This document shows, one piece after another, positions 35,724-59,133 of a stretch of DNA of 64,000 nucleotides; within the stretch, counting starts at the first letter, position 1; each line of letters opens with the position of its first letter. The notes beneath the pieces were generated by a model. That model did not search any database, was not told the DNA's origin, and saw only the letters and a program-made list of their open reading frames with translations. The position numbers were made by a program, and so were the translations under genes. This stretch comes from an uncultured Dehalococcoidia bacterium (GTDB lineage: Bacteria; Chloroflexota; Dehalococcoidia; Lucifugimonadales; JADFKI01), in contig CAZWDM010000002.1 in assembly GCA_964632415.1 (NCBI GenBank), forward strand, positions 3,039 to 67,038. Direction: 5' to 3'.

Positions 35724-36884
35724 ATGACGTTCAAGATCGTCCACGGCGGATGGAAGCAAGAGTTCGAGGAGGCGCTGCAGACCGACGGGAGCGCGCTTCG
35801 CATCATCTGCCCGTTCATCAAAACGAACGCCCTAGAGAATCTGCTGCCTCCTAGAGAAACGCCGATCCAGGTGATCACGCGGTTCAATCTCTCTGACTTC
35901 GCCGACCGGGTGAGCGACGTGCGCGCGTTGAGAAAGCTGCTGGAGGTCGGCGCCCGCGTGCGCGGCGTGAGGAATCTGCACGCCAAGCTCTACATGTTCG
36001 GCTCCTCCAGGGCGATGGTCACATCTGCGAATATCACCGAAACGGCCATGCGCCGGAACCACGAATTCGGAGTCGTCGCCTCGGACCCGGCCGCGGTCGA
36101 TCGCTGCCTGTCGTATTTCGACGAGTTGTGGGAACGTGCCGGGGAAGATCTCCGGCCCGAACAACTTGACGCCTGGGCCCAGACAGTCGCCGACCATCGC
36201 CACATGGGTGGTCGTCTGGCCGGACGTCCCGACCTGCGCGACTTCGGCGCCGATGCCGAGTTTATGGAGCATTCCCCCGTGCCGACGCCGTTCTCGATAC
36301 ACGACGCGCCACAGGCGTTCGTCAAGTTTTCCGGTAGGAGCAACGACCGTGTGCCGCTCTCGCTCCCGGTGATCGAGGAGCTGGGAGGGTCGGCCTTCCA
36401 CCGTGTGGCCTGCTACCCGACGAGCAGGCGGCCTCGCAGCGTCACGGACGGTGCTGTCATGTTCACGGGACGATTCGTCGAAGGGCCGGACATACGCGTG
36501 TTCGGCAGGGGCATCGGATCCGAGCACGTCCCGGGACGTGACGAGGCGACGCCCGAGGATTTGGATCTCCGGCCGTGGAAAAAGGAGTGGTCGAAATACG
36601 TCCGCCTCGACCGCGTGGAGTTCGTCGACGGGACGTTGGCCGACGGCGTGTCGCTGTACGAGATGATGGGCGATCTCGGACACGATTCATTTGCGTCCAC
36701 CCAGTGGAACCACGCCCGCGGCGAGGGCAACACAGACCCGCGACTTGCATACCTTCAGCAACCCGCCGTCAAACTCTCGCCCGAAGGATTCAAGTGGCTG
36801 ACCGAGAGATTCGAGCGTGCTCTCCAGCGTCATGGGAGAGTTCCCGATAGCATGCTCGCCGCCCTCGACTGGCCCGACGCATGA
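35724..36884 (+). CDS. PLD/Nuc-like nuclease fused to an uncharacterised C-terminal domain
   Basis: The single HKD-type motif NLHAKLYMFGSSRAMVTSANIT sits in the N-terminal third or so. About 200 C-terminal residues (FVKFSGRSND...VACYPTSRRP...VMFTGRFVEG) have no motif that I recognise. Confidence 0.7.
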   Translation: MTFKIVHGGWKQEFEEALQTDGSALRIICPFIKTNALENLLPPRETPIQVITRFNLSDFADRVSDVRALRKLLEVGARVRGVRNLHAKLYMFGSSRAMVTSANITETAMRRNHEFGVVASDPAAVDRCLSYFDELWERAGEDLRPEQLDAWAQTVADHRHMGGRLAGRPDLRDFGADAEFMEHSPVPTPFSIHDAPQAFVKFSGRSNDRVPLSLPVIEELGGSAFHRVACYPTSRRPRSVTDGAVMFTGRFVEGPDIRVFGRGIGSEHVPGRDEATPEDLDLRPWKKEWSKYVRLDRVEFVDGTLADGVSLYEMMGDLGHDSFASTQWNHARGEGNTDPRLAYLQQPAVKLSPEGFKWLTERFERALQRHGRVPDSMLAALDWPDA

Positions 36885-37170
36885 CCCGGATACGCCGCGA
36901 CTGGTCGCGGATTGGTTCGGTGAAGCATCGCCTCCCTTGACGGGCCGTCAACGAACCCCAAGCGACCAGTGTCGCCGCTCGACGATGTGCGTCTTCGCCC
37001 CGCACCGTTGTTCGCGCCAGCACCACCCGATGGCTCGCCGCGCTCCGAGCGTTTTCGCCGCCCTAGCCAGACGCCGCGGACACGTGTGGCGGAACGCAGT
37101 TGCAATGCTGCATTTCCGCCGATGCTCGTCGTACCGTCGTGAAGTCGTAGGTTCGATTGCGTTTCATCAA

Positions 37171-37394
37171 CTGCAAAGCGGGACGCGTCCTGTAGGGGTG
37201 GAACGTGGTATGGACTTCGGTCGCTTGCTGGGATTGCACTGCTTTCGTCGCGTCTTGCCATGACTGGCTTGGTTTCCGTTAGGGAAATGACTCCTTCGCG
37301 TTTTCGCGAACATAACCGATTCCTTGTACACGGCTGCGACACTTCGATCATCGTCGAAGACGCCTGACCATATAAGGGGGGACGCGCGTGACTC
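37171..37394 (+). repeat. Copy A of a ~225-nt structured repeat
   Basis: Aligns end to end with 40737-40960 at roughly 80 percent identity by eye. It contains the conserved hairpin TTCGCG-TTTT-CGCGAA (37295-37310), a covarying hairpin (37273-37287), and ends in ATAAGGGGGGACGCGCG (37372-37388). Confidence 0.8.
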
Positions 37395-37913
37395 TGCCTC
37401 GCACGAAACGTCCCCTTGGACCGACCGTCGAATTGTGCTGTCAAAACGAAAACGCCCCAAAGCCAAAAATCTTCGTTCCACTATGGTTCGCGACCGCCGA
37501 AGCGCGATCCAAAGCGTCGTGGAGTGCCGGGGAGCGACGGTTATTTGCGTGACGAACGGCTCTCAACGCTCGCGGATCCTGAGATCGGGGCCAATTGATC
37601 GGTTTCTGCGGAAATGTTCGAGCCAATGTGGCGGCTGTTTCGAACCGGAACGCAACTACCCTTGCAAATCGTTTCGAACCCACATTCAACCCCCTTGCGG
37701 CGGCTGATTTAAACGTCGATCAGTAACTAGAGCGTTCTGTAAAGGAAAAACCAAATGTTGAACCCCGGATTTGGCATCGATTTCGCGTTCGAGTGACCCA
37801 ATCCCCAGTCATTGGCGATTGGGCCGGTAGGTTTGTCAAGCGCCTCCTCATCGTCGCAGAAGCGATCTGGTAAATTATCAATTTCTGACGATGCTTGAAT
37901 TCGGAGTCAAGGG

Positions 37914-38702
37914 ATGCTAAAGGTTGTGGCAGCGCTTGTCGGCGCTGTTTTCGTGTTGCTGTTCGCGTCGCAGTCTGGGTTGACGGGGTTGAACTCGACG
38001 GACGACTACAACGTGGGTTTGGATCTGGCCACCGCTACTGAACTCGTGTCAGCACAGGTCGGCGACGTCGCCGATTCTCTAGGGGATGTCTCTCCGGTCA
38101 AAACCGCTGAGACGAGTTCGCCTGTCGATCTTCTAGACTTCGCGTCAGATCCGACCTCCGAGCGGACGATCGAGAAAGTCGAGGTGTACGAGCGCACTCC
38201 CGTCGGCATGGCCCTCGCCCGTCTCGCATCGCTGGATTCGCCTGGTCGCCGCGACCCTGAGGCATTCATAACGGCGGTGAACGATCTGCAGTCCGAGTGG
38301 GATCCTCGATATGAAACGGCGAAATCCGACCACGGAAGGCTTCTGAATCGGATTGCGACCGTAGAGGCGACTGCATCCCAGTATTTCCTTCGGCAAGGGG
38401 AACTGACCGCGACGATCCACGACCCGGATCTACGCGCAGACGCGGCTGTCGGAGATGCCGAGGAGTACCGCATATATGAAGAATGGCTCAGCGCGTCGAG
38501 AGACTTGAAGGAGCGTGTCGACGAAATCGTCCTGGATCTCGACGATATGGATGTGATCATCAAGAAGCTCAATCTATCTGCGAACTTCTCGGCGTTGCAC
38601 ACCAATTTCGAAGCGCTGACGCTGTCGATCACGGGTCTCCATCGCGACCTGGAGGGTTTCAGGCTGAAGTCCGAAGAAATTGCCCGAACGTTCTCGAATT
38701 GA
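37914..38702 (+). CDS. Membrane-anchored helical protein, unknown function
   Basis: 262 aa. N-terminal anchor MLKVVAALVGAVFVLLFASQSG, then an acidic helical region. Confidence 0.5.
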   Translation: MLKVVAALVGAVFVLLFASQSGLTGLNSTDDYNVGLDLATATELVSAQVGDVADSLGDVSPVKTAETSSPVDLLDFASDPTSERTIEKVEVYERTPVGMALARLASLDSPGRRDPEAFITAVNDLQSEWDPRYETAKSDHGRLLNRIATVEATASQYFLRQGELTATIHDPDLRADAAVGDAEEYRIYEEWLSASRDLKERVDEIVLDLDDMDVIIKKLNLSANFSALHTNFEALTLSITGLHRDLEGFRLKSEEIARTFSN

Positions 38703-38723
38703 AACATGTAACGAGGTCCGAAG

Positions 38724-39206
38724 ATGGAAACACAGCATGACCTACGAGGACGTTTCACCCGAAACTGGCCTGAAGCGCTAGCGACTGCGGCGCGCCTCGC
38801 CGCGTTGGTCGGCGTCTTCCTCCCTTGGGCGTTGCTGGACGATGCATCCAAGGCGGCGAATGGACCCGAACTGGCCGCATACTTTTGGGAAGGGGCCGAC
38901 CGGGATTTTCTGAGATCGACGGATCTGATCAAGTTTCTGGGGTTCTGCGCCGCGCCTTGGGTGGTGTCGACTGCAGTGTTGATCGCGGCGCTCAAGCCTA
39001 TAGTGACGAAGAATCAAAGCTTGTTCGCCCATGTGGCGTCTTTTGCGGCGATTCTCGTTTTCATCTACTGCGGTACCGGCGCCGTGGACGATTGGCACGC
39101 CGAGTTCTTCGGCCTGTTGGTGCCGTTGATCGGACTCTGGGTCGTCACGTTGGGCACGGTAGTTTCTGCTACGATCGCGGGTATGCGGGGACAGTTCGAC
39201 CAATAA
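38724..39206 (+). CDS. Small polytopic membrane protein, unknown function
   Basis: 160 aa with about 4 hydrophobic segments. It starts 21 nt after the preceding gene. Confidence 0.5.
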   Translation: METQHDLRGRFTRNWPEALATAARLAALVGVFLPWALLDDASKAANGPELAAYFWEGADRDFLRSTDLIKFLGFCAAPWVVSTAVLIAALKPIVTKNQSLFAHVASFAAILVFIYCGTGAVDDWHAEFFGLLVPLIGLWVVTLGTVVSATIAGMRGQFDQ

Positions 39207-39587
39207 CACAGGTGGTCGCGTTGACCGACGCCATCGAAGCGTAGCGAACGCGAACTCAAAGAAGGTTTTACGTAACGTCAGATTTGGCCCCAGATCGACG
39301 CTGCGAACATTCTCGAGTACTCGCGTCGCATTGAGTCTGGATCCGTGAAACCTGCCACGAGCCGACCGACGATCACACCAATGTGAACCGGCGCGCACCT
39401 CGGGCGCGGTGCCCTTCGAGTTGCGGAGGATAAGGAAGTTGCCAGCCGTTGGGATCGCCGAGTTTCAGACCGGTAAGGATGTCGAGTTCAGATGGCGAGG
39501 GTGCGGGTTCGTCTCGATGTTTTCGACATCCGAACGTCCCAAGTTCTAGGTTTAGGCAGTTCGAAAATCGAGATTATCCGCTGAAAA

Positions 39588-40659
39588 TCAGGCCACCACC
39601 CCACTCCCGTGTCGCACTTGGATGTTACGAATCTTCTTTTTTGGTTCCGAGCTGATTTCCGACGTCAGCAACGCTTTGAACACGGGTTCCGTGTCGTACC
39701 AGTCCCAAGAGCTAGTTTCTGATCTGTCCAGGTAATCAATCAACTTGGCGGATCCGACTGGGAAATCTCGCGCCAAGTGTTCGTCGACGACGAATTTGGA
39801 TATGCCTAAGTGCTCGAAGGTTGTTGTTGGCATCTCAACTGCAAACCTGACGGCTTGATCGAATACGACGATCAGATCGCGCGGCCAGCGAATCATCCGT
39901 TCGATTTCCTTTTGCGACAACGTTGCGGGTTTGCCGACCAAGCGGTTTTGCCAATACTGATTCAACCAACGATCCCACAGTTCGACTTTCTGAGGATCGG
40001 CCATGTTTTCGAGTATTCTGCCAGTTTCCGACGCGAAACTGTAGCGATCATCTTCTTCTGAATTGGCGACCAACAATGGGGTCCAACTTTCCAGCAGTTG
40101 ATCCACGGCGTACAACATCATCATTGCGTAACGGCGTATGAATTCGCTTCTCTATACTCGGGCACGCCGGCCCTGCCCAACTTATCGATATGCTCAACGG
40201 CTTTCGGGAAATTCGGCTGCATCAACTCGGCGACATCAGATCGCAGATTGGATCACGTAAACCCGTGCCACGCCGGCACGAAAGAAGGTTGATCGGGATC
40301 AAACAGCTGCAACAACCGCTCAACGGACCACGAGTGGTCGATTGACAACATCTGACCCAAGCGCGAGGTCAACATCGCCGTGCCAAGTTTTCCACGCATA
40401 CCAGTATCTTCGACTACTAGATCGAAAATTCCTGATCTTCGCGACCGAAGCCGCTGGTGCTGATTTTGCCACGATCGCTTGCGACCCATGTCGCCGAGAG
40501 CCAAAAAAGCACCAACATCCCCGCGTTTGAATCCAACGACAGCGTCAACCAATCGTTTAGGCCCCCGATGCTTGGCCGATCATCTTCCGAATTTTGCCGG
40601 ATCGAAACAGCCAACTGTTTAGCTTGTGGCAGAACATCGGCAGCAAAATGGCTTGCCAC
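39588..40659 (-). pseudogene. Decayed 3' remnant of a larger gene (DUF4020-like C-terminal region?)
   Basis: Three consecutive minus-strand ORF pieces in different frames (40659-40417, 40552-40253, 40124-39588). The last piece carries ELWDRWLNQYWQNRLVGKPATLSQKEIERMIRW. The 5' side abuts repeat copy B. Confidence 0.45.
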
Positions 40660-40736
40660 CGTCTACTACCAAACTGTTGAGAAAGTTAGTGATGGATCGG
40701 TCATGGGCAACCATCAGTCTCTCGTCCGCCAGTCAT

Positions 40737-40960
40737 TTGCGAAGCGGGGCGCGTCCTGTAGGAGTGGAACGTGGTCTGGACGTCGGTCGCTTGCTGGGCA
40801 TTGCGCTGCTTCGTCGCGTTGTCCTACATCACGCTTGGATTCCGTTACGGAATCGAATGGTTCGCGTTTTCGCGAACATGCCCGATTCCTTGTACACGGT
40901 TGCGACGCTTCGATCATCGCCGTCGACCCCCAACCACAAAAGGGAGGACGCGCGTGTCTG
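40737..40960 (+). repeat. Copy B of the ~225-nt structured repeat
   Basis: Same order of conserved blocks as copy A. Hairpin TTCGCG-TTTT-CGCGAA at 40861-40876 and hairpin ATTCCG-TTA-CGGAAT at 40839-40853. Confidence 0.8.
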
Positions 40961-41593
40961 GTCACAGAACGAGATAACGATGTTGACTGACCTTAGTTGC
41001 GTCGTGCCCCGGTATCTCGAAGAGACCGTACGCCGACGATAAACCCTCGCTTCCCTTTCGAGCAAGACCGTCGCCCCGTAATCCGACAGCGCCACCACTT
41101 GTCGCAACCGGATCCGGACATAAACTCGCGCACCACGCCTTCGATCGCGTCGCAAACCACCGAGAAACTCGACTCCTGTGGCATGCTGCCCGACGATCAT
41201 AACGCCGACATGCTTCTGTCAGCCCGAATCTTCACTCATCCAGAGCTAGTCATATGACGAATCGATAGTGCCACGCATTGGCCGATCTTCGCCTCTTTCC
41301 TCCGCCTAACATGGGCAACCGTCCGGGAGGTCGAAATCTGTCCGTTACCGCATCCCCTCCGAGCGGGAGGTTACTCATTCGGGCGAGAAATTTCACGGTC
41401 TCGCTAGTGGGGGACGCATGGCTGATGCATGATGAACGCCTGCAGGCATCGCCCCTCCCTTGGTATGGCCGAATCGTGGACGAACCTGCGGATTCGAGTG
41501 GGTCAACCGTGGGTTCATCGCGGTCGAAGCGTTTTTGATGGGGAGTTGACAATTGCGACAACTCGGCAACTGAGACTACCCACGGAGCAAGAA

Positions 41594-41827
41594 ATGAACA
41601 TACGACTGATTGGATTGGCAATGTTGGCGATCATGGTGGTCGGTGCGGCGTCGATGTTTTTGATCGGCCGGTCGCTGACCGAAAGAGATTACGACGCGGT
41701 GATGCTGTGGGCCGCTGTACTCAACGCATTCTCCACGTTGGTGTTGGCCGCCGCGGTAGTCGTCGAAGGGGAAAGAGTCGTCAACATCGTGAAGGGCAAC
41801 AAGGATGATGACGACGAAGACGCTTGA
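41594..41827 (+). CDS. Small two-TM protein with an acidic tail
   Basis: ATG 41594 follows GGAG. MNIRLIGLAMLAIMVVGAASMFLIG...LNAFSTLVLAAAVVVEG...KDDDDEDA. Confidence 0.35.
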   Translation: MNIRLIGLAMLAIMVVGAASMFLIGRSLTERDYDAVMLWAAVLNAFSTLVLAAAVVVEGERVVNIVKGNKDDDDEDA

Positions 41828-42281
41828 CCGTTCGGGATTCTGAGTAGTCGTGTTGCTCCATGAGGCAAGACAGGAAGCATCGCGGTTGTGATGAGTAGGA
41901 CGCAGCAGCAGGTGTTGGTCGACTTGAGTAAATCGTGTACACGCATCGCCGCCTACATCGTTGTTTCAAACCGCCAAACATCGTCAAGAAACGCATTCAA
42001 TGCTGAAATTCATCAAGCTTAGATCTCTTGGAGTACAGGCAGCACCCGCCTGGGCCTCGGCAGATGCCCAATCGCTTCTTCGTCCTCACTAGAGAAACAG
42101 TGCTGGAACCGCCCACATCGGAGCGCGTAGGTACACGCGATGGGCCGGAAGTGACAACAGCGGACGCCTTGGCTATCATAATGGACATCGCACTTCAATC
42201 GGGCTTGAAATCGATTTAACAAGCCACCTGGGTCGGAGCGAGAAACAATCCTTTAGGGTCAGCGATCAACCAGATTGCAAG

Positions 42282-43103
42282 TCAATCGCTCGCATCCTTC
42301 GCTTCCGCTGTCATGTCGTATTGAACTGGCTTGGATCCAAGCTTGATTTGGACACCCAAATCTTTAAGGATTGGCCACAAATTGTTTTTGAACTCGGCTC
42401 CGAACTGCGCGCCAGCGGCACGTGACATGGGGTGGTCCGGCCAATGTTTCGCCAACACTGATTGGCAATCTGTACTTTTGAACGGGCCAATAGGGATTTC
42501 CTTGACAATTCGGCGCGCGATTGAACCCCATTCGGAAGCGTGGTTCTGGGGATTGGCGCTGTTTGGTCTAACGCATCCGTTACTGACGACATGCAGTTTG
42601 TTCGCGGGAAAGAACTTCTTAATGTTTGTCGACAATGAACGTTGTCGGCCTGTCACCACCCACAGGAAAGGCACTCCGGTGTCAGGAATGTTGATGCCCG
42701 GATCGTCGCGGATCGTCGAGTAGAGCGAGATGAAGTCGCTATCGTCACTGAACATCACGACATGGGATATCCGCCCGAACGCCAGATCGACGATTGCGTT
42801 AGTCGCCATGGCAATATCGGCGGAGTTTTTCGTCGAGGACATGCTGAAGTGTTGAGTCCCGTTGACGACGATGTCCACACTACCAAAAGTATCGCGTGCC
42901 CATAAACGCCACAACTCAACTTGATCCGCTTTCACGTAGAGTTTCATAGTCGTTAGTGCCGGAACGTGTTGCGGCCAGTTTTCGACCAAATTCACGATCA
43001 GATGTTGGGCATCATCGAGCAAGTTTTCGACGTCTACGAATAACCCAGATCCCGCGACTTTTCGCTCACCTATCGGGTCATCTGACACATGCTCGTCTTG
43101 CAC
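42282..43103 (-). CDS. NYN/LabA-like (PIN-related) domain protein with a C-terminal extension
   Basis: GLFVDVENLL, KNSADIAMATNAIVDL, VVMFSDDSDFISL. The C-terminal ~100 aa (IARRIVKEIPIGPFKSTDCQSVLAKHW) could be an OST-HTH-like module. Confidence 0.7.
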   Translation of the reverse strand: MQDEHVSDDPIGERKVAGSGLFVDVENLLDDAQHLIVNLVENWPQHVPALTTMKLYVKADQVELWRLWARDTFGSVDIVVNGTQHFSMSSTKNSADIAMATNAIVDLAFGRISHVVMFSDDSDFISLYSTIRDDPGINIPDTGVPFLWVVTGRQRSLSTNIKKFFPANKLHVVSNGCVRPNSANPQNHASEWGSIARRIVKEIPIGPFKSTDCQSVLAKHWPDHPMSRAAGAQFGAEFKNNLWPILKDLGVQIKLGSKPVQYDMTAEAKDASD

Positions 43104-43146
43104 CGTATCCTCCTTTTTCAGGTCAAGTTATGCGTGAATTGCACGG

Positions 43147-43563
43147 TTAATCGAAACGGCGTTTTACGGGATTTGATGCCGCCCATTGTCCGGCATCATC
43201 GCAGTATAGAACGAAAATTGCCCCGTATTCGTTCAACTCCTCTGCGTGTGACGTCGGCAAGTACTGGGTTCGCTGTTCTGATGATCGGCTTCGAGGAGTC
43301 CAATCCTCATTGTGAACGGTGTTGCCAGGCCAGAGACTGGGTGCCCACATACCCTTACAAGCTCTCGCCCTTTCGATGGTTCGCACAACGGCGACTCGGT
43401 GCATTCCATATGCGAAACCGGCAGAACCGAACCATGGGTCGTCGGCATCGAATGAGTAACGCAAAACCTGAATATACGCCACTTTTCGGATCGCTGATCT
43501 CCGTGACTTCGCACCGTTCGGCTTTCGTGTGATCATCACTGAATCTTCGATTTTCAGCAACAC
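43147..43563 (-). CDS. Hypothetical protein upstream of the NYN gene
   Basis: 138-aa ORF ending 43 nt before the NYN start. No motif recognised. Confidence 0.3.
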   Translation of the reverse strand: MLLKIEDSVMITRKPNGAKSRRSAIRKVAYIQVLRYSFDADDPWFGSAGFAYGMHRVAVVRTIERARACKGMWAPSLWPGNTVHNEDWTPRSRSSEQRTQYLPTSHAEELNEYGAIFVLYCDDAGQWAASNPVKRRFD

Positions 43564-43707
43564 TGCTCGATGTCATCGTTGGTATCGCCGCACCTGTTTC
43601 CCTTCGGAGGACGAGAGTGAGCATTAAGTACGACGAAGTGTCCCGAACGACGAGGGCCGTTCACGCCGAAACATTGGCATAAACGTTACCTATATAATCG
43701 CAAATGC

Positions 43708-44580
43708 GTGTATCTCGCCCGATCAGGATTGACCTCGATCATCGGCTGCAAGCCGATTTATTTCTTGCCCGAAGACCCATTTGTCGAGGAAGTTCTGATA
43801 CCGTGTTTCGCGGCCGCCTCAGACGTCGACTGCATGGTCGGGTTCTTTTCGAGCGAAGCGCTTGTTTCGTTGGCTCCTGGTCTCGCGACCTTCATAAACC
43901 AATCGGATGGCCAATTTCGGTTGATTATCAGCCCAGTCATTAGTGCAGCGGACTGGGAAGCAATTGAAGCAGGTGTTGTGTCGCCCGAAACCGTAGCTGA
44001 GGACTTCCTTGACGGATTGGTGATCACAGAGAACGCAATCCAACGCTTTACGCTAGAGTGCCTCACGTGGATGATCCGAGCAGGTCGAATCAAAATCCAG
44101 ATCGCTTTGGTGAAGAACGGCATTTTCCACCCGAAAGTATGGCTTTTCCACGGCGATGACGGTCTGATGGTAACTGCGCATGGATCAAGCAATCTGACAG
44201 ACGCGGGCATCCGAAAAAACGTCGAGCAAGTCGCCGTGGCGAAATCGTGGGACGCGCTCAACGACGCATACACAGCCAACGCGTTGGATCGGCAGTTCAA
44301 CGATCTTTGGGAGCATTCAACCGATGGATGCATCGTATTGGATTTGCCGGACGCGGTTCGCGAGCGTTTGGTTCAGACATACGATTCCAATTCGCCTCCC
44401 CAAGAATCTGGCTTGAATTCCCCTTTTCAACGCGCTTCGGCGATTCATTCACCTAATGGTGAAGCTGCGCTTCAACCTGATTCGGCGGATTTCGTGATTC
44501 CTGCAGGATTACGCCATCAGGATGGGCCATTTGCGCACCAAGATCAGGCTGCCATACTTGGGAATGCGCGGGTTATGTGA
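43708..44580 (+). pseudogene. Truncated PLD-domain N-terminus of a PLD-helicase type defence protein
   Basis: HKD motif FHPKVWLFHGDDGLMVTAHGSSNLT. The ORF stops just after a helicase Q-motif-like stretch (GPFAHQDQAAI), and no Walker A follows. About 500 nt of non-coding-looking DNA lies downstream. Confidence 0.5.
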
Positions 44581-45066
44581 TCGTCCATCGGTTGGTCACG
44601 AGATCACGTAAGACGATTACCGCCAAGATATGCGCGCACCTTTTGTTGAACGGATAGATCTGTTGTTGATCGTCGTGTCGTCACCTTACAACCCGTTGGT
44701 GCAGCAGTTATGTGATCAGATCTTCCCCTTCAGCATAGACACGTCAAACTTACGGCGGCTAAGGGATATAGAGGAAGGGTCTGGATTCTAGACCCAATAC
44801 AACCGGGAAGAGTCACGTCTCGACCCTTATTTTGGTTCCGATCAGGGAGCACGGCGACTCGAAGATGTTAACTGCCTTTTGAACGCAATTGGATTTTACT
44901 TTCGTAGATCGAGTTGTTTCTTGAACTGCAATTCAGGTACCACAACCCTGGTTGTAAACGTCTGACGACGGTCTAGCATCAACGCCAAGTCGACGTTTTA
45001 TCTCACCAGCGAGTTCGTGTGCCTCGCCGCGCTCGTCGATGAACTGGCGACGGGCGATTTCCAAGG

Positions 45067-45087
45067 AAGCCCAGGCCGCTCGGGCTT
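45067..45087 (-). terminator. Weak hairpin at the end of the ssp-linked operon
   Basis: AAGCCC-N9-GGGCTT overlaps the SNF2 stop codon. There is no U-tract, so this is low confidence. Confidence 0.2.
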
Positions 45088-46819
45088 ATACCTGAGTGCC
45101 GTTGATGTGTTGGCTGCTGACCGGAGTCACCTCCTTAATCACCTCACTAAGCAATATCGCAGAATCCGTCTCGCTCAATTGAGTTCCACTGGCTAGAGCA
45201 TCCACAATGTTGGCGAAATCCTCGCTTTTTCGAGTCAGGATTTGGTCAAGGACCTCTTCTATGGTTTCCTGGCACCTGAACCTATGGACATGAACTATTC
45301 GTTGTTGTCCCAAACGTACCACTCTGTCTCTCGCTTGAGCATTTGCTGACGGGTTCCACCATTCGTTGATGAACACAACATGGTTTGCTTCCGTGAGTGT
45401 CAAGCCCTCTCCGCCTACCCTGCTTGAGCACAGGAGAGCGACGATGTCGATAGCAGACTTGAATTTTCGAATGGCACGGGTCCTCTCCATAGTTGTCAAC
45501 TTGCCCGTCAAGGTTACGGCGCCCAAGGGCGGTCGTTCTCGGGCCATGCGATCTAGGAGGATTTCCAACGGCCGTAATGTGTAAGAGAAGACCACCGCCT
45601 TTTCTCCAGCGTCGTGAACTGTTTGGAGGATCTCCAGAACTCGATCTATCTTTGCGCTCGCACCGCTTGATGGTTCAGCGTCGCAGATGGACCTCAGTAT
45701 CGTTAGTCGTTGAAGCACTTCGCCGGATTCCTTTGCAAGCGGCTGAGAACGAGCCGTAAAATAGGCTCGCTTTTGGCGAGGAGTTAGTTCAACTACTTCT
45801 GTGGTGTCAATCACCTCGGGAAGTTCGTGCAGGACATCGGATTTTAGCCTCCGGAGCAAATATGGCTGCGCCAAGGCTCTAAGGCCTGCGTCAATATCGC
45901 TCGATTTTGCCGAGAATCTGGTTGGTTCCAGTAATGACAAGAGCGTAGCGAGGTCCACGGGATGGCGCTCCATGGGTGTTCCGGTCAACGCCCACATTCT
46001 CTCGGCTTTCATAAGTCGGAATTCGCGAACGAGTTTGGACTGAGATCTTCTGAGCCTATGCGCTTCGTCGGCCACGACCAACTCCACATGCTTAGACATA
46101 AAGGGCGACGGTAGCGGCCTTAGCTGCTCATAACTAGTAACAATGATGTGAACTCTGCCGAGCAATGCGGACCAAACCCTGTCTGATTCGTCTTTGGCCG
46201 GAACTGACCGTACAGCGGTCAGCCGCGGTACCCATCGCTCACATTCAGATTCCCAATTAGCCAGAAGCGATTTGGGACATACAACCACAGCACTCTGAAT
46301 GGCTGCCTCGTCTACGAGCCTCTCTAAGGCCCGAAGGGCTTGGGCAGTCTTGCCGAGGCCCATGTCATCGGCGAGTATGCCATTGCGGTGTTGCATGAGC
46401 CACTGTACACCGACTTCCTGAAATGGGCGCAACGGTGCTCGCACATCGGAATCGAAAACCAAAGGTGCGATGAACTGTTCAACTGAGGGGCGCAGAGCAA
46501 GTGCCTCGTCTGTTGTTTGAAGCCTCGGCACTTGTCGGTGCCGCGGACGCTTGACTTCAAGCCATGCCGTACGTCCACTGCGGACTAACCGCGAAAGGGA
46601 GGTGTCAAGGTCAAGAGCGATGTTGGCTGCTCGACGAAGGCGCACGCCGTCAGTACCTGCAGGAAATGCCTCTTGAGGAACTTCACCATCCAACGGAGCG
46701 ATTTCGATTAGACGTGAACCTCTATTCTCGACTACCTTGACTTCGACCGGGTATCCTCGCCACACGTGTGAAGCAATTGGGCTACGTCGACTACGATTAA
46801 TTTGACTGAGAGGAGACAT
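45086..46819 (-). CDS. SNF2-family helicase, last gene of the ssp operon
   Basis: LADDMGLGKTAQAL (motif I), VVADEAHRLRR (DEAH), VRLGQQRIVHVHR (motif VI). ATG 46819 is preferred. The 668-aa track ORF would overlap the DGQHR gene by about 300 nt. Confidence 0.85.
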   Translation of the reverse strand: MSPLSQINRSRRSPIASHVWRGYPVEVKVVENRGSRLIEIAPLDGEVPQEAFPAGTDGVRLRRAANIALDLDTSLSRLVRSGRTAWLEVKRPRHRQVPRLQTTDEALALRPSVEQFIAPLVFDSDVRAPLRPFQEVGVQWLMQHRNGILADDMGLGKTAQALRALERLVDEAAIQSAVVVCPKSLLANWESECERWVPRLTAVRSVPAKDESDRVWSALLGRVHIIVTSYEQLRPLPSPFMSKHVELVVADEAHRLRRSQSKLVREFRLMKAERMWALTGTPMERHPVDLATLLSLLEPTRFSAKSSDIDAGLRALAQPYLLRRLKSDVLHELPEVIDTTEVVELTPRQKRAYFTARSQPLAKESGEVLQRLTILRSICDAEPSSGASAKIDRVLEILQTVHDAGEKAVVFSYTLRPLEILLDRMARERPPLGAVTLTGKLTTMERTRAIRKFKSAIDIVALLCSSRVGGEGLTLTEANHVVFINEWWNPSANAQARDRVVRLGQQRIVHVHRFRCQETIEEVLDQILTRKSEDFANIVDALASGTQLSETDSAILLSEVIKEVTPVSSQHINGTQV

Positions 46820-48230
46820 GATCTCGCATTTCGCGGACCTTATCCCACAGGCCCGCGGAGCTCTCATCAGGAGGGAGCAGAAGTTGCTCCTCCCATTCGT
46901 TCCGCAGCTCTTGTTCTTCCCGTTCGTTTGTCTGATAATATCCTGTGATCCAACGCAGGACCCGCTTCGCCGTATCGGTTGCCTGTTTTCGGCCTTCACT
47001 CCGCATGGCCCATCTCCTACTGTTGGTCCGGCGGTTGAAGGTCGACACGAGCAACAAGCCTCGCCACGGGAGGTGATGAAGTCCCCAATCAATCCTCCCC
47101 AGCGGACTCAGCGCCGTGACGGCTTGGTCGAGCGTCGGGGCATTGGGATCATCTAGTCCTCTATCGAGCAAGGCCCTAGCCACGCTAACCATCACATCTT
47201 GCCCAATGGGCCAGAAGAGAACGTTATCTGCGGTTTCACCGTCGGCCCCATCAGCTTGGTGATTCCTGACATCGCTGGGATTCAGTGCGAGATCCGGGAT
47301 CGCTTCGCGGAGGGCATCCCAGTAGAGTCTCAACTCGTCGAACAACCCTTCGACGTAGTCATCCGGAGGGCGAAAGCGCTTGAATTGTTTCACATCGTTG
47401 GGCCTCTCTGCCTCCGGGCCTGTGCCCCACCCGATGTTCACTCTGAAAGGGGTTGTTAGCAGAATCTCGTTGAGATCATAGAGCTGCTGAAGGCTCGTGA
47501 AGTGGGAGGTCCCTTCCTTCAGTGGTCTTCCCTTAGTCTGCACTCTAAGCGACTCAATATGACGTCCCGGAGCCATGAAAAAGTCGTGTGTTGCGATGAG
47601 GCGCCGGGTCAGAATTGCAAATACGTCATCTTCGTCCATGATGATGTTGGTATCACTGTCGGTCGGCTTGGCATACCGATTGAGGCTAGAGAACAAACGA
47701 CGATACGACTCGAGCCAATCGTCCTCACTCGACTCAGGCGGGCGGATCACCATTAAAACGGAGATCTCTTCGTTCGCAAATCCACTGGGAGGTTCGATCC
47801 TCTCCCTCTCGTCTTCGGGTTGCAGCAGCGTCTTGATGGCCTTCAACCTGTGTTGGCCGTCTAAAGCATAGTAGTTTTGGTCTCCTGAAAAGCGTAGGAC
47901 GCCGAAGGACTGTTCGATGCTCTCTTCATCTGCGAAGATCTCGAATTGCGGGTCATCTGAAACGCTAACGGGGTAGAACTTGGGCGAGCCTCCAACTGCA
48001 GCCACAACCATGGACGCAAAGAAACGATCTGTCCTTCCTGTCAAGTAAGTCACAATTTCCTTCTTAACTCGACTCTCTCTGATGGTGCGTTGTATAGCCT
48101 CATCAAGCGTGAAGTCCTCGAGGACCTCAGAACCGAACTTTACCTCTGCGGCAACTTCCCGCATCCGCATTTTCACAATGTAGTAAGTCCAGTCTCCCAT
48201 GGATGCCTTAAGGGCTGGGTACAGTTGCAT
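46797..48230 (-). CDS. DGQHR-domain (DndB-like) protein
   Basis: NYYALDGQHRLKAIKTLL is the family-defining DGQHR motif. 477 aa. Confidence 0.85.
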   Translation of the reverse strand: MQLYPALKASMGDWTYYIVKMRMREVAAEVKFGSEVLEDFTLDEAIQRTIRESRVKKEIVTYLTGRTDRFFASMVVAAVGGSPKFYPVSVSDDPQFEIFADEESIEQSFGVLRFSGDQNYYALDGQHRLKAIKTLLQPEDERERIEPPSGFANEEISVLMVIRPPESSEDDWLESYRRLFSSLNRYAKPTDSDTNIIMDEDDVFAILTRRLIATHDFFMAPGRHIESLRVQTKGRPLKEGTSHFTSLQQLYDLNEILLTTPFRVNIGWGTGPEAERPNDVKQFKRFRPPDDYVEGLFDELRLYWDALREAIPDLALNPSDVRNHQADGADGETADNVLFWPIGQDVMVSVARALLDRGLDDPNAPTLDQAVTALSPLGRIDWGLHHLPWRGLLLVSTFNRRTNSRRWAMRSEGRKQATDTAKRVLRWITGYYQTNEREEQELRNEWEEQLLLPPDESSAGLWDKVREMRDHVSSQSN

Positions 48231-48247
48231 AGCGTGAATTTCCTCCT

Positions 48248-48700
48248 CTAGGCGTCAATTGGCGGTCGTAGGGTTCCAGTAATAGTACCGGCGCGCTTGT
48301 TCGCTGGTGGGCCAAAGCACCGGATCAACCAAGCTTCGGCGTCCTTGACAACACCAACCGGTAGCTCAACGAACCAAAATGTCAGCGATACTGTTTGGTA
48401 GCAGCGCTTGGCTCGTCGGAGTTCGGGGTCGTCGGACCTGCAATGGGCAAGGAATCTTGATTGGATGTTGGTCTCTGATCTGCCGACGTACAAAGGACTC
48501 GCCAAATTGTGAAACAATGTAGCCTGGTCTGCCCCGACTGCGTTCGGAGGTGGGGCGCAAATCGCGTACACACCTGGTCGTGTTGGCACCATCGCTTCGT
48601 CGTTAGTCGTGAGAATCGCCGATCTCCATGAGCCGGAGTCGCTTAGCGCCTGCTCCAAGCCTCTCCAGTCAGTCGACTCTATTGACCAGCCTCGGTTCAT
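48248..48700 (-). CDS. GIY-YIG-like nuclease domain protein
   Basis: PGVYAICAPP...PLYVGRSETNIQSRFLAH...AEAWLIRCFGPPANKR fits the GIY...YIG...R...E...N order. Confidence 0.5.
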   Translation of the reverse strand: MNRGWSIESTDWRGLEQALSDSGSWRSAILTTNDEAMVPTRPGVYAICAPPPNAVGADQATLFHNLASPLYVGRSETNIQSRFLAHCRSDDPELRRAKRCYQTVSLTFWFVELPVGVVKDAEAWLIRCFGPPANKRAGTITGTLRPPIDA

Positions 48701-48729
48701 CTGTGCTATAGCCTCGATTCACGAGTCCA

Positions 48730-49566
48730 CTATTTGTGGCACGCCAAACACACCTTAGTTTGACCGTACAGGTCATCGATATCCAATGGTTCGGCGCCGG
48801 GCCTCAGTGGATTAGAGTGCACCTGCTCACGCGTCCGTTGCAACCGACGCCGATGGTCCATCTCAATCTGTGCTACCCGTTCGGGTTCCTCTAGTTCGTT
48901 CAGTGATTCGCCTTCGCTCCAAGTGAAGGGCGCCCCATGGTCAATGGCGTTTTTTTCATAACTCTTAGCTTCTTCAAAGAACTCGGGGTGCCTCTCCTTC
49001 AACCTTACCCATTCGATCTTCTGCTGGAAGAAACAGAACGTACAACCACTTCGGCTACGCCACTCGTAATATGCTGGCAATCCGATGCCGGTTCCGTCAA
49101 GTAACTCCAAGACGCCGGCCTTGTCGATGCCGGCATCTTTGAGGGGTAATCGGACTATCAAACGATCATGCTTAGATGAATAGCCTTCTCGGAATTCTTC
49201 GTCGGCACGTATGGCTACGTAGCTGTACACAGTCCTCCCATCTTCCAGCATCGGCTTAACCCACTGCTCGAACGGCCTGAGTTTGAGCTGACGTGTGCAC
49301 CAACGCGTCTGAGCTGATGGAAGGAAATTGTTGTATCGCTTCAACCAGAAGTCGAAATCTCGGTCCGGGTTGAGGCGGAGGATGGGTTTTCCCAAAAAAC
49401 CCTCCAACTTCACGAGGAATTCGTAAACCTCAGGCAACTCTTTGCCTGTGTCAGTAAAGAAGTAGGTGATATCCAATTCGGGATGGTTCTCACGCATGAA
49501 GATCGCCAGCGCGGCGCTGTCTCGTCCGCCCGACAATCCCAGGACGTGTCGTTCTTTGTCAACCAT
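48730..49566 (-). CDS. sspD: PAPS-reductase-like ATP pyrophosphatase (SspD type)
   Basis: PP-loop LGLSGGRDSAALA. 278 aa. The start codon overlaps the sspC stop. Confidence 0.85.
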   Translation of the reverse strand: MVDKERHVLGLSGGRDSAALAIFMRENHPELDITYFFTDTGKELPEVYEFLVKLEGFLGKPILRLNPDRDFDFWLKRYNNFLPSAQTRWCTRQLKLRPFEQWVKPMLEDGRTVYSYVAIRADEEFREGYSSKHDRLIVRLPLKDAGIDKAGVLELLDGTGIGLPAYYEWRSRSGCTFCFFQQKIEWVRLKERHPEFFEEAKSYEKNAIDHGAPFTWSEGESLNELEEPERVAQIEMDHRRRLQRTREQVHSNPLRPGAEPLDIDDLYGQTKVCLACHK

Positions 49567-52500
49567 CAGGCAACTGAACCTTCGTTGTGGTTACTCGAAG
49601 CAGATCCACGAGCTCCAAGGTACTCGGCGGCGACCCGGGCAAGAGCCGCGAGAATCACATCTTGAGCGTGATCACCGCTTTCATCCAATGTTTGGCGGAC
49701 CTGGCCCATCAGTTCATTGACTTGATCTTGCTGATTGTCGGCGATTTCGAAATCATCATGGATCGGTTCACCGCTCAAACCCACCACCACCGCCATCGCT
49801 TCTCGGCGATCCTGCCGACCTTTGACATGAGCGAACGCCTCTAACCGCGTGAAACGCCTCGCCAAGTCGGCTAGTTCGATGGTCGACCGATCGATATCCG
49901 AATCGACCCATTGATTCGGCGGTTTGTTGGAAGCGAGACTTGCCAAAGATTCCATGTCGGCTTCGGTGCCTTGGAACCGAGAAAGGCGAACCACGAAAGC
50001 CTCTAGCCGGTGATCACCGCTGATTGTTCGGATATTGTCGGCTCGATCTCTGAGTTCGGATAACGCGTCGGAGGATGTGCTGGGGATACCCAATTCAGTT
50101 AGCAATGTTTCCCGCATTCGATTGAGCATTTGGTCATACGCTTCGTCAAGTTCGGCTAAACCTGCCCGTACATGGCGGGTAATTTCGACTACCCCGGTCC
50201 CAGCATGCGGATTGTTGGTAGGCAGTTTTGGGATGTCGTCGAAAATGAACCGATTAGGATCATTGGCTTGCTTGAACAGTTGTCTGATCCTTTTGGCGTT
50301 GTTGGATAGCCTCTGTGTTCGTCCTACCCAATCCGGCAGCCGATCATATATCGCAACTAATCCGCGGGCTACATCAATGGGTTCAAGCTCAGGGAGATCG
50401 TTGGATGGATCCATGTCTCGAACGATCGAGGCCATTTCGGACAGCAGGTCGCGCGAAAAATCTGACAGTTCCATCCAACGGAGTTGAATATCCGATGGAT
50501 CAGACGCCAAGATTTCCACGTCCAGGTCTGTCAACCAGGGTTGGAAGATGCGTTCCCGGTAGAGAGTCGTGTGACTTCGACGTGATTGGATATACGCGGT
50601 CGCCAATACTGGCAACAAACCATCTCGGATACCGAACGGTGGGCGGCGCCAAATATCATAAACCTCCTCGATGGATATAGTCCTTTGTGCATTTGTTCGC
50701 AGAAACTCGTCGGCTGCGTCCCACACCACACCGAGGTTGTTGGAAGAGTCATCGGATTCCGGTGGTACGAACCGCCAACCTTCGTCCGTTTCTCGATATA
50801 GGTTGTTTGGCGCCAAGATGGAATCGAATAGACCACCTTCCGGAGGGTAACCCTCGATCCCCAATCTCTCCTCGCCGACGGAAGTCGCCATGTGACGCAA
50901 CAGAGCATTTCGGGCGCCTACGGCATTCCCTGAAGGTCTGATCCTGTTCAGCAACTCGTTGTGGATTTTTGGTGCACTAGCAAACCTAGCGTCTGCAAGA
51001 TCCGACGCCAAGGAATTTAGTCCCGTCCTGTCGAGGCGTTGTGCAGGCTCATTATGCAAAAACCAAGTTGCGTCATCTAATGCCCGATTTAACTCTCCCT
51101 CTATCCGGCTTTGCAGGTCTGCGATACGTGAAAAAACCTCCGCCCGAGCGACGCGGTCGCCTCGCAATTCCGGTGTTTCATCCCTAACTCGTTCCAGTGC
51201 TGCCAAGTCCCTGAAAAGCGCCGAAATTGACCAGGAATTTCTTTGCGGGATACCCACAACAACGTCGAATGATTCGTTGGTGTTGGCCGTGCGCTTTGCC
51301 GAATTATTGACTTCTTCGGCGTTGTCCCCCTGCATTGGCAATGCCAAAACGAATGCACCTAAAGCGCCGGACGTAGCCGTGTAATCGGGTACGAAATCTT
51401 CCAATGCGTTGAGGTCGACCACTGCTGTATCGAACCACCGCATGGACCCGGTTTCGTGATAATGGCGTTTGGCGACCACGGGTTGAAACCCGGAAAGTTC
51501 GGTGATCTGGGAATAGTCAGGGGCAACTGCGTTTCGGCTCGCATTTTCGATGGCTTTCTCGATGTCGAAATCGCTGCCTTCAAACACGCTGTAAGAATCA
51601 TTGAATCGACGGTGAACGACCAACGACCACTTTTCAAGATCGGCGAAGGTTTCGGCGAGTTCGCCCTCTGATTCGCACGCCCACTCGAGCGTGCGTGGAT
51701 TTGCGGTTAACCCAGTACGTTCCTTGAAGAGTTCAATCAGCCCTACCGCTTTCAAAAGTCGTAGGTGGGCATCCTCGCCTCCTGCGCTATAGCACCTGCC
51801 CAATGCGTCAGCAACCATCGCCCAACGATGACCGTCAGGAGACGCCATGATCGAAGGTTCAAGATTCAATTGAAGGTAGTCCCAGAGCCGGTCGATGGTG
51901 TACACGTCGTCGATGCCAGAGTCTTTCAGGAACTCTTGAAAACCCCTCGGTTCTGATGAATTTAGAAACCCAAATACGCTTCGCTGGTTTTGTCCGAATC
52001 GTCGACGCGAAATTGGGCCAAGCAGCAAAGCTACCATCGGGTGTAGCGGCCAACATGCCTGGAGAGACTGAGTCATTCCGGTTTCGGAGTCTACCCCCAG
52101 GGATTCAGCGATTGTTTTGCATGTTTCGCCAAATCCTTGAGGAACTAGATCGCATTCAATGGCGCGTCCCAAGACATCCAATTGCTCGTCGCCGGTTGAA
52201 TTGACAACCAGATCCACGAAACGCCCCTGAATTTTCGCCCACTCGTCACGGGTTTCGCGGGCCAAACGGTGAGCATGTTCAGCGAACCCTTGATGGAGTA
52301 TTCCGATGAATATCAGTCGACGGTCGCTGCGCGACGCAATTTCGGCGAGTTCCTGGAAAAAGTAGATGTCACTGCCTTCATATGCCGCATGCTCCAAGAA
52401 CTTTCCCATTTCATCCACGATCACCACCAAACCGCCGCGGGATTTGGGATCTTCGGAAGCGAGCTTTGCCAACGTGTCAAGGACGGTACGTTCATCCCAA

Positions 52501-52970
52501 ACACCAACTGAACCAGGAGCAACTAGACCAGAAGACTCCAGCGATTCTCCCAAGACCTTGGCCGGATCACCGCGGCGTCCCACTACGGGCAGCATTAACC
52601 ATCCTCGGCGGCGCGGCGGGAGCGCCTTTGACACAATCGAAGCTGTGTTCTCTCCAAGGGCGTCTCTCGCGATCCGCTTCAGCGAATACTTGGAACTCAA
52701 CAAGGCTCCCAGCATGACAGCGAGACTTGATTTGCCACTGCCGTAAGGCCCTGTCCAAGTGAACGCACCCTGACGGCTCGTCGAGATGTGGTGAGCCATG
52801 TTTTCCAACAGAAACGCTGACGAACGCGGACACACAAAACCTTCTAGCGCCTCTGGTTCGTCCATATCGGAATCGATGCGGATTGACCGTTGAAACCTGC
52901 GCGAAACTCTGACTCGGTCAGCTAAAGCAGTCAAGCGTAAACTCCAGTTCGGTTCGGATGGTAATCCCAT
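49566..52970 (-). CDS. sspC: Large P-loop ATPase (SspC type)
   Basis: Walker A TGPYGSGKSSLAV and Walker B-like LVVIVDEMGKF. 1134 aa. It sits between the DUF4007 and PAPS-reductase genes. The start may be internal (Met36). Confidence 0.75.
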   Translation of the reverse strand: MGLPSEPNWSLRLTALADRVRVSRRFQRSIRIDSDMDEPEALEGFVCPRSSAFLLENMAHHISTSRQGAFTWTGPYGSGKSSLAVMLGALLSSKYSLKRIARDALGENTASIVSKALPPRRRGWLMLPVVGRRGDPAKVLGESLESSGLVAPGSVGVWDERTVLDTLAKLASEDPKSRGGLVVIVDEMGKFLEHAAYEGSDIYFFQELAEIASRSDRRLIFIGILHQGFAEHAHRLARETRDEWAKIQGRFVDLVVNSTGDEQLDVLGRAIECDLVPQGFGETCKTIAESLGVDSETGMTQSLQACWPLHPMVALLLGPISRRRFGQNQRSVFGFLNSSEPRGFQEFLKDSGIDDVYTIDRLWDYLQLNLEPSIMASPDGHRWAMVADALGRCYSAGGEDAHLRLLKAVGLIELFKERTGLTANPRTLEWACESEGELAETFADLEKWSLVVHRRFNDSYSVFEGSDFDIEKAIENASRNAVAPDYSQITELSGFQPVVAKRHYHETGSMRWFDTAVVDLNALEDFVPDYTATSGALGAFVLALPMQGDNAEEVNNSAKRTANTNESFDVVVGIPQRNSWSISALFRDLAALERVRDETPELRGDRVARAEVFSRIADLQSRIEGELNRALDDATWFLHNEPAQRLDRTGLNSLASDLADARFASAPKIHNELLNRIRPSGNAVGARNALLRHMATSVGEERLGIEGYPPEGGLFDSILAPNNLYRETDEGWRFVPPESDDSSNNLGVVWDAADEFLRTNAQRTISIEEVYDIWRRPPFGIRDGLLPVLATAYIQSRRSHTTLYRERIFQPWLTDLDVEILASDPSDIQLRWMELSDFSRDLLSEMASIVRDMDPSNDLPELEPIDVARGLVAIYDRLPDWVGRTQRLSNNAKRIRQLFKQANDPNRFIFDDIPKLPTNNPHAGTGVVEITRHVRAGLAELDEAYDQMLNRMRETLLTELGIPSTSSDALSELRDRADNIRTISGDHRLEAFVVRLSRFQGTEADMESLASLASNKPPNQWVDSDIDRSTIELADLARRFTRLEAFAHVKGRQDRREAMAVVVGLSGEPIHDDFEIADNQQDQVNELMGQVRQTLDESGDHAQDVILAALARVAAEYLGARGSASSNHNEGSVA

Positions 52971-53902
52971 TCAATCAAAGCGAACTGTCGGTCGTCGTCG
53001 ATTGCGTTCCTTCTAACCAATCGCTTCAAACCGGCGGTTTCAGACCAGACGTATTCCCCATTTGTGACGTCTTCCAATCCCGTCAACAAGCCCACCATTT
53101 CGTTTTCTTCGAGCAGAAATACCTGACCTGGCGACCCAGGTTCGTGGACCAAGGCTTCAAACGACAACGTGTTCGAATTGGCAAACGACCGGCGCCAAAA
53201 GTCGGTGACCGCATAGCTGAGCACACCTAAACCCAGCGACGGCTTCGGGCCGCGGACGAACCGGAAACCGTCTTTAGTACCTAAAGATTTAATGAGGCCC
53301 AACTCGGTCAACGGTGATTCCAACCTGTCTTCATGACCTGTGAGCGATGACCGAGTTGTTTGCGGGACATATGTGCGTATCAGGCACGCAACGTCTCGTT
53401 TGATTGTTGCATGCGCTATCCGCGGCCAACGTCGTTCTTCCGCAAATCTAGCGATTGCCCGCGCCAAACCCTCTCTTTCGAAGTCGATTCCGGAGTAATA
53501 GTTGAAGGCCCAAAACCAAGTCGTAGATCGTGCGCCCCAACCCGCGAGCTGCCAATGCACCAACCATGAGGTTGTGATGTTTTCCATATAAGGATCGAGG
53601 CCATTTGACCCAAAAATCATGTTTCCCAAAGTAGTCGTCGTGATCCGGTTGGAACGGCTTCCGTCTTCAATGATGCGCGTAGCGGCCGCCCAATGTCGGA
53701 TCGAAGCCACCATGTTTTTCCCCACTCCCAACCTCGCGATTGCATCAGGACCGGAAAAAACTGACCGATCGCCCTTTCCTGTACCGTCAGTGGCGTATAC
53801 TGCGTCGAACGCTTTCTTCAACCACCCGTATCGTAGCGGAAAAGTTTCGTGCCCCGACAAGCGCGGCTTGAAACTGACAGAGTATGCGGGTCCTCTAGAC
53901 AT
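52931..53902 (-). CDS. sspB: DUF4007-family protein (SspB type)
   Basis: FKPRLSGHETFPLRYGWLKKAF...VGKNMVASIRHWAAATRII is the DUF4007 signature as I remember it. Confidence 0.8.
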   Translation of the reverse strand: MSRGPAYSVSFKPRLSGHETFPLRYGWLKKAFDAVYATDGTGKGDRSVFSGPDAIARLGVGKNMVASIRHWAAATRIIEDGSRSNRITTTTLGNMIFGSNGLDPYMENITTSWLVHWQLAGWGARSTTWFWAFNYYSGIDFEREGLARAIARFAEERRWPRIAHATIKRDVACLIRTYVPQTTRSSLTGHEDRLESPLTELGLIKSLGTKDGFRFVRGPKPSLGLGVLSYAVTDFWRRSFANSNTLSFEALVHEPGSPGQVFLLEENEMVGLLTGLEDVTNGEYVWSETAGLKRLVRRNAIDDDRQFALIEWDYHPNRTGVYA

Positions 53903-53994
53903 TCACACGGTAGCTGGATGACGCGTCCAGTAAGATTAACATATCTCATTAGATGATCCTCGGTCTTCGTCTTCGCAGCCAACATCGAACATCA

Positions 53995-59109: not shown

Positions 59110-59133
59110 CCCCGGCCGTGAAAGGAGAAACAC

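Follow-up and report, generated by a model that had tools for sequence, protein, structure and literature searches.

Paralogous repeats of an uncultured Dehalococcoidia bacterium are probably control-region cassettes of an integrative and conjugative element family

What kind of element is represented by the two similar repeats of ~225 nt, designated here as A and B, in a 64,000-nucleotide stretch of DNA from an uncultured Dehalococcoidia bacterium (GenBank assembly GCA_964632415.1, contig CAZWDM010000002.1, positions 3,039 to 67,038; this whole stretch is the window in the following text)? The initial annotation had proposed a structured non-coding RNA family or a hairpin-rich miniature mobile element. 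In our study, the repeats were found to belong to a real, conserved and previously undescribed non-coding family, and A and B are probably paralogous copies of an operator, promoter and leader cassette of an integrative conjugative element (ICE) family in one uncultured Dehalococcoidia order. Judging from sequence comparison, the element is most likely an ICE control region which works mainly as protein-binding DNA, with a less likely RNA-level function for part of it.

The repeats themselves were recovered as first described. A (37171-37394) and B (40737-40960) aligned end to end in MAFFT with one compensated 1-nt indel pair, a BLAST search of A against its own genome returned B with 84% identity over 222 nt (E 3.9e-60), and the conserved blocks and both hairpins quoted by the initial annotation were present. 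The mismatches between A and B are clustered, with 15 adjacent pairs against 8.8 expected (p 0.009), and show no bias in codon position (15/10/12, p 0.60). Stop codons were found in all three plus-strand frames of A, and the 204-aa open reading frame (ORF) running across the repeat on the minus strand gave no Pfam match. The ORFs starting from a conserved GTG have 54, 7, 43, 54, 34 and 41 codons in six copies and are unrelated in sequence. A protein-coding repeat was rejected because of the missing family match, the absence of codon bias, the differences among the short GTG/ATG ORFs (7-54 aa) and the reading of the downstream conserved block in different frames. These results agree with the earlier statement that A and B share no convincing ORF, and no coding signal of a degraded protein-coding fragment was seen. 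Similarly, no transposase, reverse transcriptase or Cas gene adjoins A or B, as had been noted.

The count of two full copies has turned out to be too low, although both are real. A covariance model (R1) was built from six sequences, namely A, B, C and three relatives from two Dehalococcoidia metagenome-assembled genomes (MAGs), and a sequence-only model (R2) was built from the conserved 3' half of the element. R1 identified five copies on the contig, all on the plus strand and in the order A, B, E, D and C (Table 1). E is a diverged copy within the window, whereas D and C lie 4 and 7 kb past its end; the copy 7 kb beyond the window was also found by BLAST with 67% identity. An exact-motif scan with one genome per species gave three relatives in two Dehalococcoidia MAG chromosomes. 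One of these three, an orthologous A-type copy, is situated 3' of the gene for a PLD protein which is 88% identical to the one encoded upstream of A. Among 151 related genomes, 26 carry 1-8 copies each, giving more than 60 copies in total, and both orientations are seen in these other genomes at distances of a few tens of kb. None of 150 genomes from the rest of the phylum had the element in the R2 search. Rfam 15 gave no match in the window at the gathering score, and none at E<=1 in the three loci with A, B and C. In one of the other Dehalococcoidia MAGs (L005:3117-5087), two complete copies share a strand at a distance of 1.7 kb, and each is accompanied by a short gene for the regulator X described below; this layout is a tandem array of regulator and control-region units with very little between them.

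The canonical control region covers ~400 bp between the divergent regulator gene X and the first type IV secretion gene. In the family alignment of 31-33 non-redundant copies, its parts follow the order of block I (GTCCTGTAGGGG), block II (GGAAC, 16 nt and a GCTYGC-like block), block III (TTYCMGCT), a short palindrome, the core or block V, a variable stretch and a terminal palindrome, blocks I and II being swapped in one subfamily. The core reads CCTGTACACGG-TATGACAYCAC, and its GTACAC is nearly invariant in 31 sequences. Copy E is without the CCTGTACACGG core and keeps the remaining blocks; at 56880-56900 it has instead a long palindrome of its own (GATCTGGAC-GTC-GTCAGATC), and no other copy inspected showed this palindrome. 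Canonical loci (for example L012, L017, L022 and L036) also have the conserved block CASACTCGATKGCAG ~45 nt 3' of the terminal palindrome, before the ribosome-binding site of gene Y, the gene found next downstream. The GG-N9-GC spacing of the blocks does not agree with sigma-54, and reading the blocks as ECF-type or sigma-70 sites, by eye and by scans, gave no consistent -10 and no conserved hexamers.

A protein-binding function is suggested by the palindrome before the core, named O3 here. In A and B this is the hairpin TTCGCG-TTTT-CGCGAA of the initial annotation, which is indeed identical in both copies. Its sequence depends on the subfamily, being TCGCG..CGCGA in that of the window, CTTCC..GGAAG in G3, TCCCT..AGGGA in another and TGCAA..TTGCA in G2. 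In canonical loci, palindromes of the same type are found at ~-215 (near the start of X), ~-155 and ~-24 from the core, with spacings of ~57 and ~133 bp, and the half-site type changes between subfamilies at all three positions together. Four loci of the TTCC type and one of the TCCCT type have three palindromes each in 3.2 kb, as compared to 0.03-0.3 expected (P<0.004). All three fall inside the ~190-bp control region in the four TTCC-type loci and are divided over two element copies in the TCCCT-type locus, while two other TTCC-type loci have just one palindrome each. Three stems of one sequence which switch together are needed by a dimeric DNA-binding protein and not by an RNA fold. Moreover, the stretch of X which aligns with helix-turn-helix models (the predicted recognition-helix region) varies between the same subfamilies as the palindrome type. 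Such subfamily-switching palindromes are as expected for the signature of operator DNA, and the presence of at least two same-type, putatively regulator-specific palindromic operators is the arrangement of a divergent repressor-operator region of the Rco/Pc or phage-immunity type.

The second hairpin of the initial annotation, TTTCC-G-TTA-G-GGAAA in A and ATTCCG-TTA-CGGAAT in B, was found in both forms. Outside the subfamily of the window it is not kept as a hairpin, and the stem forms in just part of this subfamily. In copy A, its sequence TTCC-GTTAG-GGAA matches the TTCC..GGAA operator type of another subfamily, a match which may point to a second X paralogue cross-regulating this copy or may have no meaning.

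The genomic context supports the regulatory function. ORFs were clustered around 37 element copies, and a homologue of X was found just upstream in 30 of these loci, mostly divergent and with its start ~80-100 nt from the element. In the G2 subfamily X is co-directional with the element, and no X adjoins A or B. At least 176 relatives of X were obtained, all of them unnamed or described just as 'hypothetical'. In the AlphaFold model of X (mean pLDDT 80), a confidently modelled N-terminal domain of four helices is followed by a helix of 58 residues and by a C-terminal domain which is also helical. All fold matches of this model were insignificant (E above 0.8), and the top ranks were mostly XRE, Cro, cII, Aca and C-protein regulators. 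On the other side of the element, the G3, G4 and E-type loci have a strong Shine-Dalgarno site and the conserved gene Y ~80 nt 3' of the terminal palindrome, followed by TrbL/VirB6-like, PrgI-like and VirB4/TraC-like genes. The end of this operon lies past the window (L060:503-4713, corresponding to contig positions 66502-70712) and codes for a TrwB/VirD4-like coupling protein as well as for a Replic_Relax (PF13814) protein of 548 aa. The latter also has a weak MarR-like match and is likely the relaxase of this ICE.

A and B are orphan copies which are still under constraint. Mismatches between them occupy 9.9% of the columns conserved in other subfamilies as against 24% of the variable columns (p 0.011). 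Comparison to the orthologous locus of the other genome gave identities of 92% for the PLD gene, 67% for the first part of the spacer and 83% for the element; the similarity stops at 37395 and the next 46 nt are at background. Since the mismatches avoid conserved columns and the identity of the element is above that of the spacer, the element is constrained and has a sharp 3' boundary.

From these observations, the following mechanism may be proposed. Dimers or tetramers of X would occupy the three predicted operators, perhaps with looping, and would thereby control rightward transcription into the downstream module, from a promoter whose position we infer, as well as the leftward promoter of X itself. 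In the copies heading the secretion operon, the terminal palindrome would be a terminator or attenuator or a further protein site. This ICE has five copies, all rightward, and for most of them a co-oriented gene module comes next. In A and B, the gene X, both upstream putative operators and the right palindrome arm have been lost, whereas O3 and the blocks are retained under purifying selection, and most likely these two copies tie the downstream cargo to the regulatory circuit of the element in trans.

Several observations weigh against this reading. The CGCG-type palindrome of the window's subfamily is frequent by chance in such GC-rich DNA, the window having 12 of them where 11.4 are expected; the operator reading for A and B is therefore based on their position and on the analogy to the remaining subfamilies. 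The sequence-conserved blocks I, II, III and V might equally be motifs of an RNA. Consensus scans found no sigma-70-type promoter, and no -10/-35 hexamer is conserved at a fixed column. X has no sequence relative in Pfam, NCBIfam or PDB beyond coiled coils. Further, the ~1.3 kb 3' of B is without a recognisable gene, and in the orthologous A-type locus of the other genome convergent genes are found downstream of the element, which heads nothing obvious there.

The alternative which survives best, though we regard it as unlikely, is a cis-acting RNA leader. In this reading, the rightward transcript would have a leader by which its extension into the conjugation operon is attenuated or anti-terminated, in analogy to the zipper-type attenuator or the conAn2 RNA of pLS20. 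The terminal hairpin would be the terminator, upstream blocks would make up the regulatory fold, and A and B would be leaders whose terminator has been lost. The element in E and in the G3 and G4 loci is indeed located between a divergent regulator and the first conjugation gene, as is the rco-gene 28a region of pLS20 (PMC13401043, PMC8191782), and A and B do not have this location. The terminal palindrome (AAAGGGGGG-loop-CCCCCCTTT) is GC-rich and flanked by A and T runs, and it shows compensatory change: in the 31-sequence alignment 66.9% of the cells pair, as compared to 42-51% for slid partners, and double changes occupy 45 cells against 9-28, values which are reached in none of 500 shuffles. 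It is long and often perfect in the copies heading the secretion operon, including E, whereas A, B and C have the left arm alone, and it could be a terminator or attenuator. Several local stems with G-T pairs, and sequence-conserved blocks for which a role as DNA is missing and which could be single-stranded RNA motifs, are also in favour of a leader. However, the T run 3' of the hairpin is present in some members and absent in many. Well-formed hairpins show 9 G-T pairs against 6 A-C mismatches, which is no clear excess, and in some members the palindrome is perfect even across the loop, a feature not needed for an RNA hairpin. The single helix proposed by RNAalifold for the whole family, between the pyrimidine tract before GTACA and a G run, is the sole family-wide antiterminator candidate, and it pairs at 77.4% as compared to 77.5% for shuffles and 83-88% for slid partners. 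Hairpin 1 behaves as a repeated putative operator, and single-sequence folds of A, as RNA or DNA on either strand, are ordinary (z -0.6 to -2.0). Moreover, one subfamily has a sigma-70-like promoter downstream of the element, and this places the element outside the leader of the gene served by that promoter. A Shine-Dalgarno site and start with a sequestering helix, as suggested by the first six sequences, was rejected for the family as a whole, since the G run is the left arm of the palindrome in other subfamilies and the helix has no covariation support. Of the structured RNA family proposed initially, a conserved multi-copy non-coding family with compensatory change in its palindromes, absent from Rfam, has remained, whereas a free-standing RNA is unsupported.

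Among the known systems, the rco-Pc region of pLS20 together with its leader appears to be the closest analogue. In the pLS20 family, a divergent regulator and operators are followed by a 456-nt leader which ends in a terminator before the first conjugation gene, and the leader carries a zipper-type attenuator, cATT, with the conAn/conAn2 RNA (PMC13401043, PMC8191782). The present element resembles it in having a divergent helix-turn-helix regulator, a long conserved non-coding region before the conjugation operon of a monoderm-type secretion system, more than one putative operator, and a GC-rich hairpin, at times flanked by A and T, shortly before the ribosome-binding site of the first gene. 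On the other hand, there is no sequence or protein homology, X being no relative of Rco by the searches run, and the zipper pairing is unsupported here. The distance from hairpin to Shine-Dalgarno site is ~80 nt here as compared to 0-26 nt in pLS20, and the element here is multi-copy, often has its own regulator gene and also stands before cargo.

Other systems share single features with the element. The prgX-prgQ region of pCF10 in Enterococcus has divergent regulator and conjugation promoters, two operators and the leader terminator IRS1. The divergent arrangement, the multiple putative operators and the possible leader terminator are comparable, whereas the overlapping antisense RNAs and peptide pheromones of pCF10 have nothing comparable detected here. 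The tripartite operators of temperate phages and the C proteins of restriction-modification systems present several same-type palindromic operators at fixed spacing in a divergent control region. The fixed spacing, the specificity which co-varies with the regulator and the weak fold matches of X are similar. In our element, the spacing (~57 and ~133 bp) is much wider, X has a long coiled coil and an extra domain, and long non-palindromic blocks are present. In SXT/R391, SetCD boxes of ~20 bp place one type of regulatory sequence before several operons of a single ICE, as is seen here, but the repeated unit here is 230-400 bp and often includes its own regulator gene.

An extension of the control-region reading, which we consider doubtful, is that the element and X form a portable 'module head', the ICE being an array of units each made of a regulator gene, a three-operator region and a gene module. 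If this is true, the transfer genes and the individual cargo modules would each be under an operator and regulator specificity of their own, modules would be swapped between elements at the sharp 3' edge formed by the GC-rich palindrome, and the cassette system would be built on regulatory regions instead of integrase sites.

It is very unlikely, in our opinion, that the 3' palindrome is itself a recombination site or anchor for the capture or exchange of cargo between elements. Such a site would explain why homology stops at the palindrome, as in the comparison of A with its orthologue and in A, B and C-type copies, which lose similarity soon past it; the 12-6-12 geometry of the palindrome is that of tyrosine-recombinase core sites, and low-GC cargo is present between copies A and E. 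However, no isolated right half-sites were found at the far ends of cargo, the right arm being present just within the palindrome of copy E. In the window's subfamily, weak homology also extends ~50 nt beyond the palindrome, whole elements instead of half-sites are duplicated, and a regulatory head shared by different modules would give the same sharp boundary without any site-specific event. An integron attC or cassette site was likewise rejected, with no isolated right half-sites and no integrase adjoining the copies.

Still a little less probable is that A and B are decaying, now functionless duplicates of control regions, or else a miniature transposable element or what is left of a degraded gene. 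Both copies are without X, the upstream palindromes O1 and O2 and the right palindrome arm, and they lie among truncated genes. However, the differences between them avoid family-conserved columns, the A-type copy of the other genome is better preserved than the first part of its spacer as given above, and no coding signal was seen. The miniature mobile element of the initial annotation is unsupported: reading the ends of A, B and C revealed neither terminal inverted repeats nor target-site duplications, and the copies are not dispersed but are tied to one genomic context. It had further been stated that B abuts a truncated gene, which would fit insertion activity. The minus-strand ORF 39588-40124 is in fact a partial DUF4020 match (profile 17-106 of 182, E 1.6e-7), the ORF pieces between this fragment and B gave no match, and insertion activity at B is without support.

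The least probable alternative is an origin of transfer (an inverted repeat with an ATCCCTG-like nick region) or a Frpo-type single-strand initiation or promoter site: O3 lies ~10 nt before the conserved ATCYCCTG-T core, which may resemble MOBP-type nick regions, copy D begins ~400 nt 3' of the Replic_Relax gene and all five copies of the contig are on one strand, but five copies per ICE and 1-8 per genome are unexpected for an origin of transfer, both orientations occur within a few tens of kb in other genomes, and the DNA fold of the single strand is branched and ordinary on either strand (z -1.0 and -0.9), giving no long promoter-bearing hairpin.

With the control-region reading retained as the probable one, the remaining parts of the ICE can be described. 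From left to right, it consists of the PLD gene, A, two unknown ORFs and the DUF4020 fragment on the opposite strand, B, the ~1.3 kb with no recognisable gene, low-GC cargo, X_E (opposite strand), E and the secretion operon, and then a truncated X, D, two ORFs, X_C (opposite strand), C, a small lipoprotein gene and hsdM. The GC content forms a mosaic, with 68-73% at ~22-35 kb, 52-56% from copy A to X_E (37000-56000) and 66-70% in the secretion operon (56000-64000), which fits low-GC cargo within a high-GC ICE backbone. The cargo downstream of copy C (L060:13682-14644) has an IS1595-family transposase gene, followed by an AAA ATPase and subtilase gene pair. In the G2 loci (L038:1501-2668 and related), an X-like gene of the same direction and one for a 180-aa helix-turn-helix/membrane protein precede the element; 3' of the element there are a good sigma-70-like promoter (TTGTGT, 17 nt, TACAAT), a gene for a 134-aa unknown protein and a PIN-like (VapC-type) gene. 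This downstream pair looks like a toxin-antitoxin pair, the PIN-like assignment being made by reading the sequence.

Table 1. Positions of the element copies, their parts and the adjoining genes (numbered from the first letter of the window, except for D and C)
Feature	Position	Strand	Remarks
PLD-like gene	35724-36884	+	directly upstream of copy A (context)
Copy A, control-region element, orphan	37165-37400	+	R1 match 241 bits; no regulator gene X adjoining; 3' of PLD-like gene
Blocks I and II of copy A (GTCCTGTAGGGG; GGAAC, 16 nt, GCTYGC-like)	37187-37229	+	from family alignments
Hairpin 2 of copy A (block III; TTTCC-G-TTA-G-GGAAA)	37273-37287	+	TTYCMGCT family-wide; stem not
O3 of copy A (hairpin 1, TCGCG-TTTT-CGCGA)	37296-37309	.	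putative operator; ~24 nt before core
Core block V of copy A (TCCTTGTACACGG..GACAC)	37321-37345	+	most conserved family part
Left arm of terminal palindrome, copy A (ATAAGGGGGGACGCGCG, then GTG)	37372-37390	+	right arm decayed or absent; end of the homology to other copies
Copy B, orphan	40731-40966	+	R1 match 229 bits; 84% identical to A
O3 of copy B	40862-40875	.	same palindrome
X_E, putative regulator gene	55924-56730	-	divergent from copy E; 268 aa, with a helix-turn-helix domain, a long coiled coil and a C-terminal helical domain
Copy E, diverged canonical copy	56814-57043	+	between X_E and first type IV secretion gene; R1 19.8 bits; R2 47 bits, E 4e-12
Terminal palindrome of copy E, complete, 36 bp	57012-57047	.	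both arms match exactly
Gene Y	57125-57724	+	first of type IV secretion operon headed by copy E; then VirB6-like, PrgI-like and VirB4-like genes
Copy D	contig 71119-71353	+	R1; past window end
Copy C	contig 74067-74302	+	R1; past window end

To our knowledge, almost nothing is known about the control of transfer in mobile elements of Dehalococcoidia and other uncultured Chloroflexota, and our literature search gave no paper joining Dehalococcoidia, conjugative and T4SS. Our study offers a concrete and testable control module consisting of the X family, its probable operators and strongly conserved DNA or RNA blocks, where X represents a new helix-turn-helix/coiled-coil family of putative regulators. 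The two models, R1 and R2, can be used as a sensitive marker for these ICEs in metagenomes, the copies being found only in this order among the genomes sampled. The repetition of the unit before cargo suggests that defence-type and other cargo may be wired to the element's own switch.

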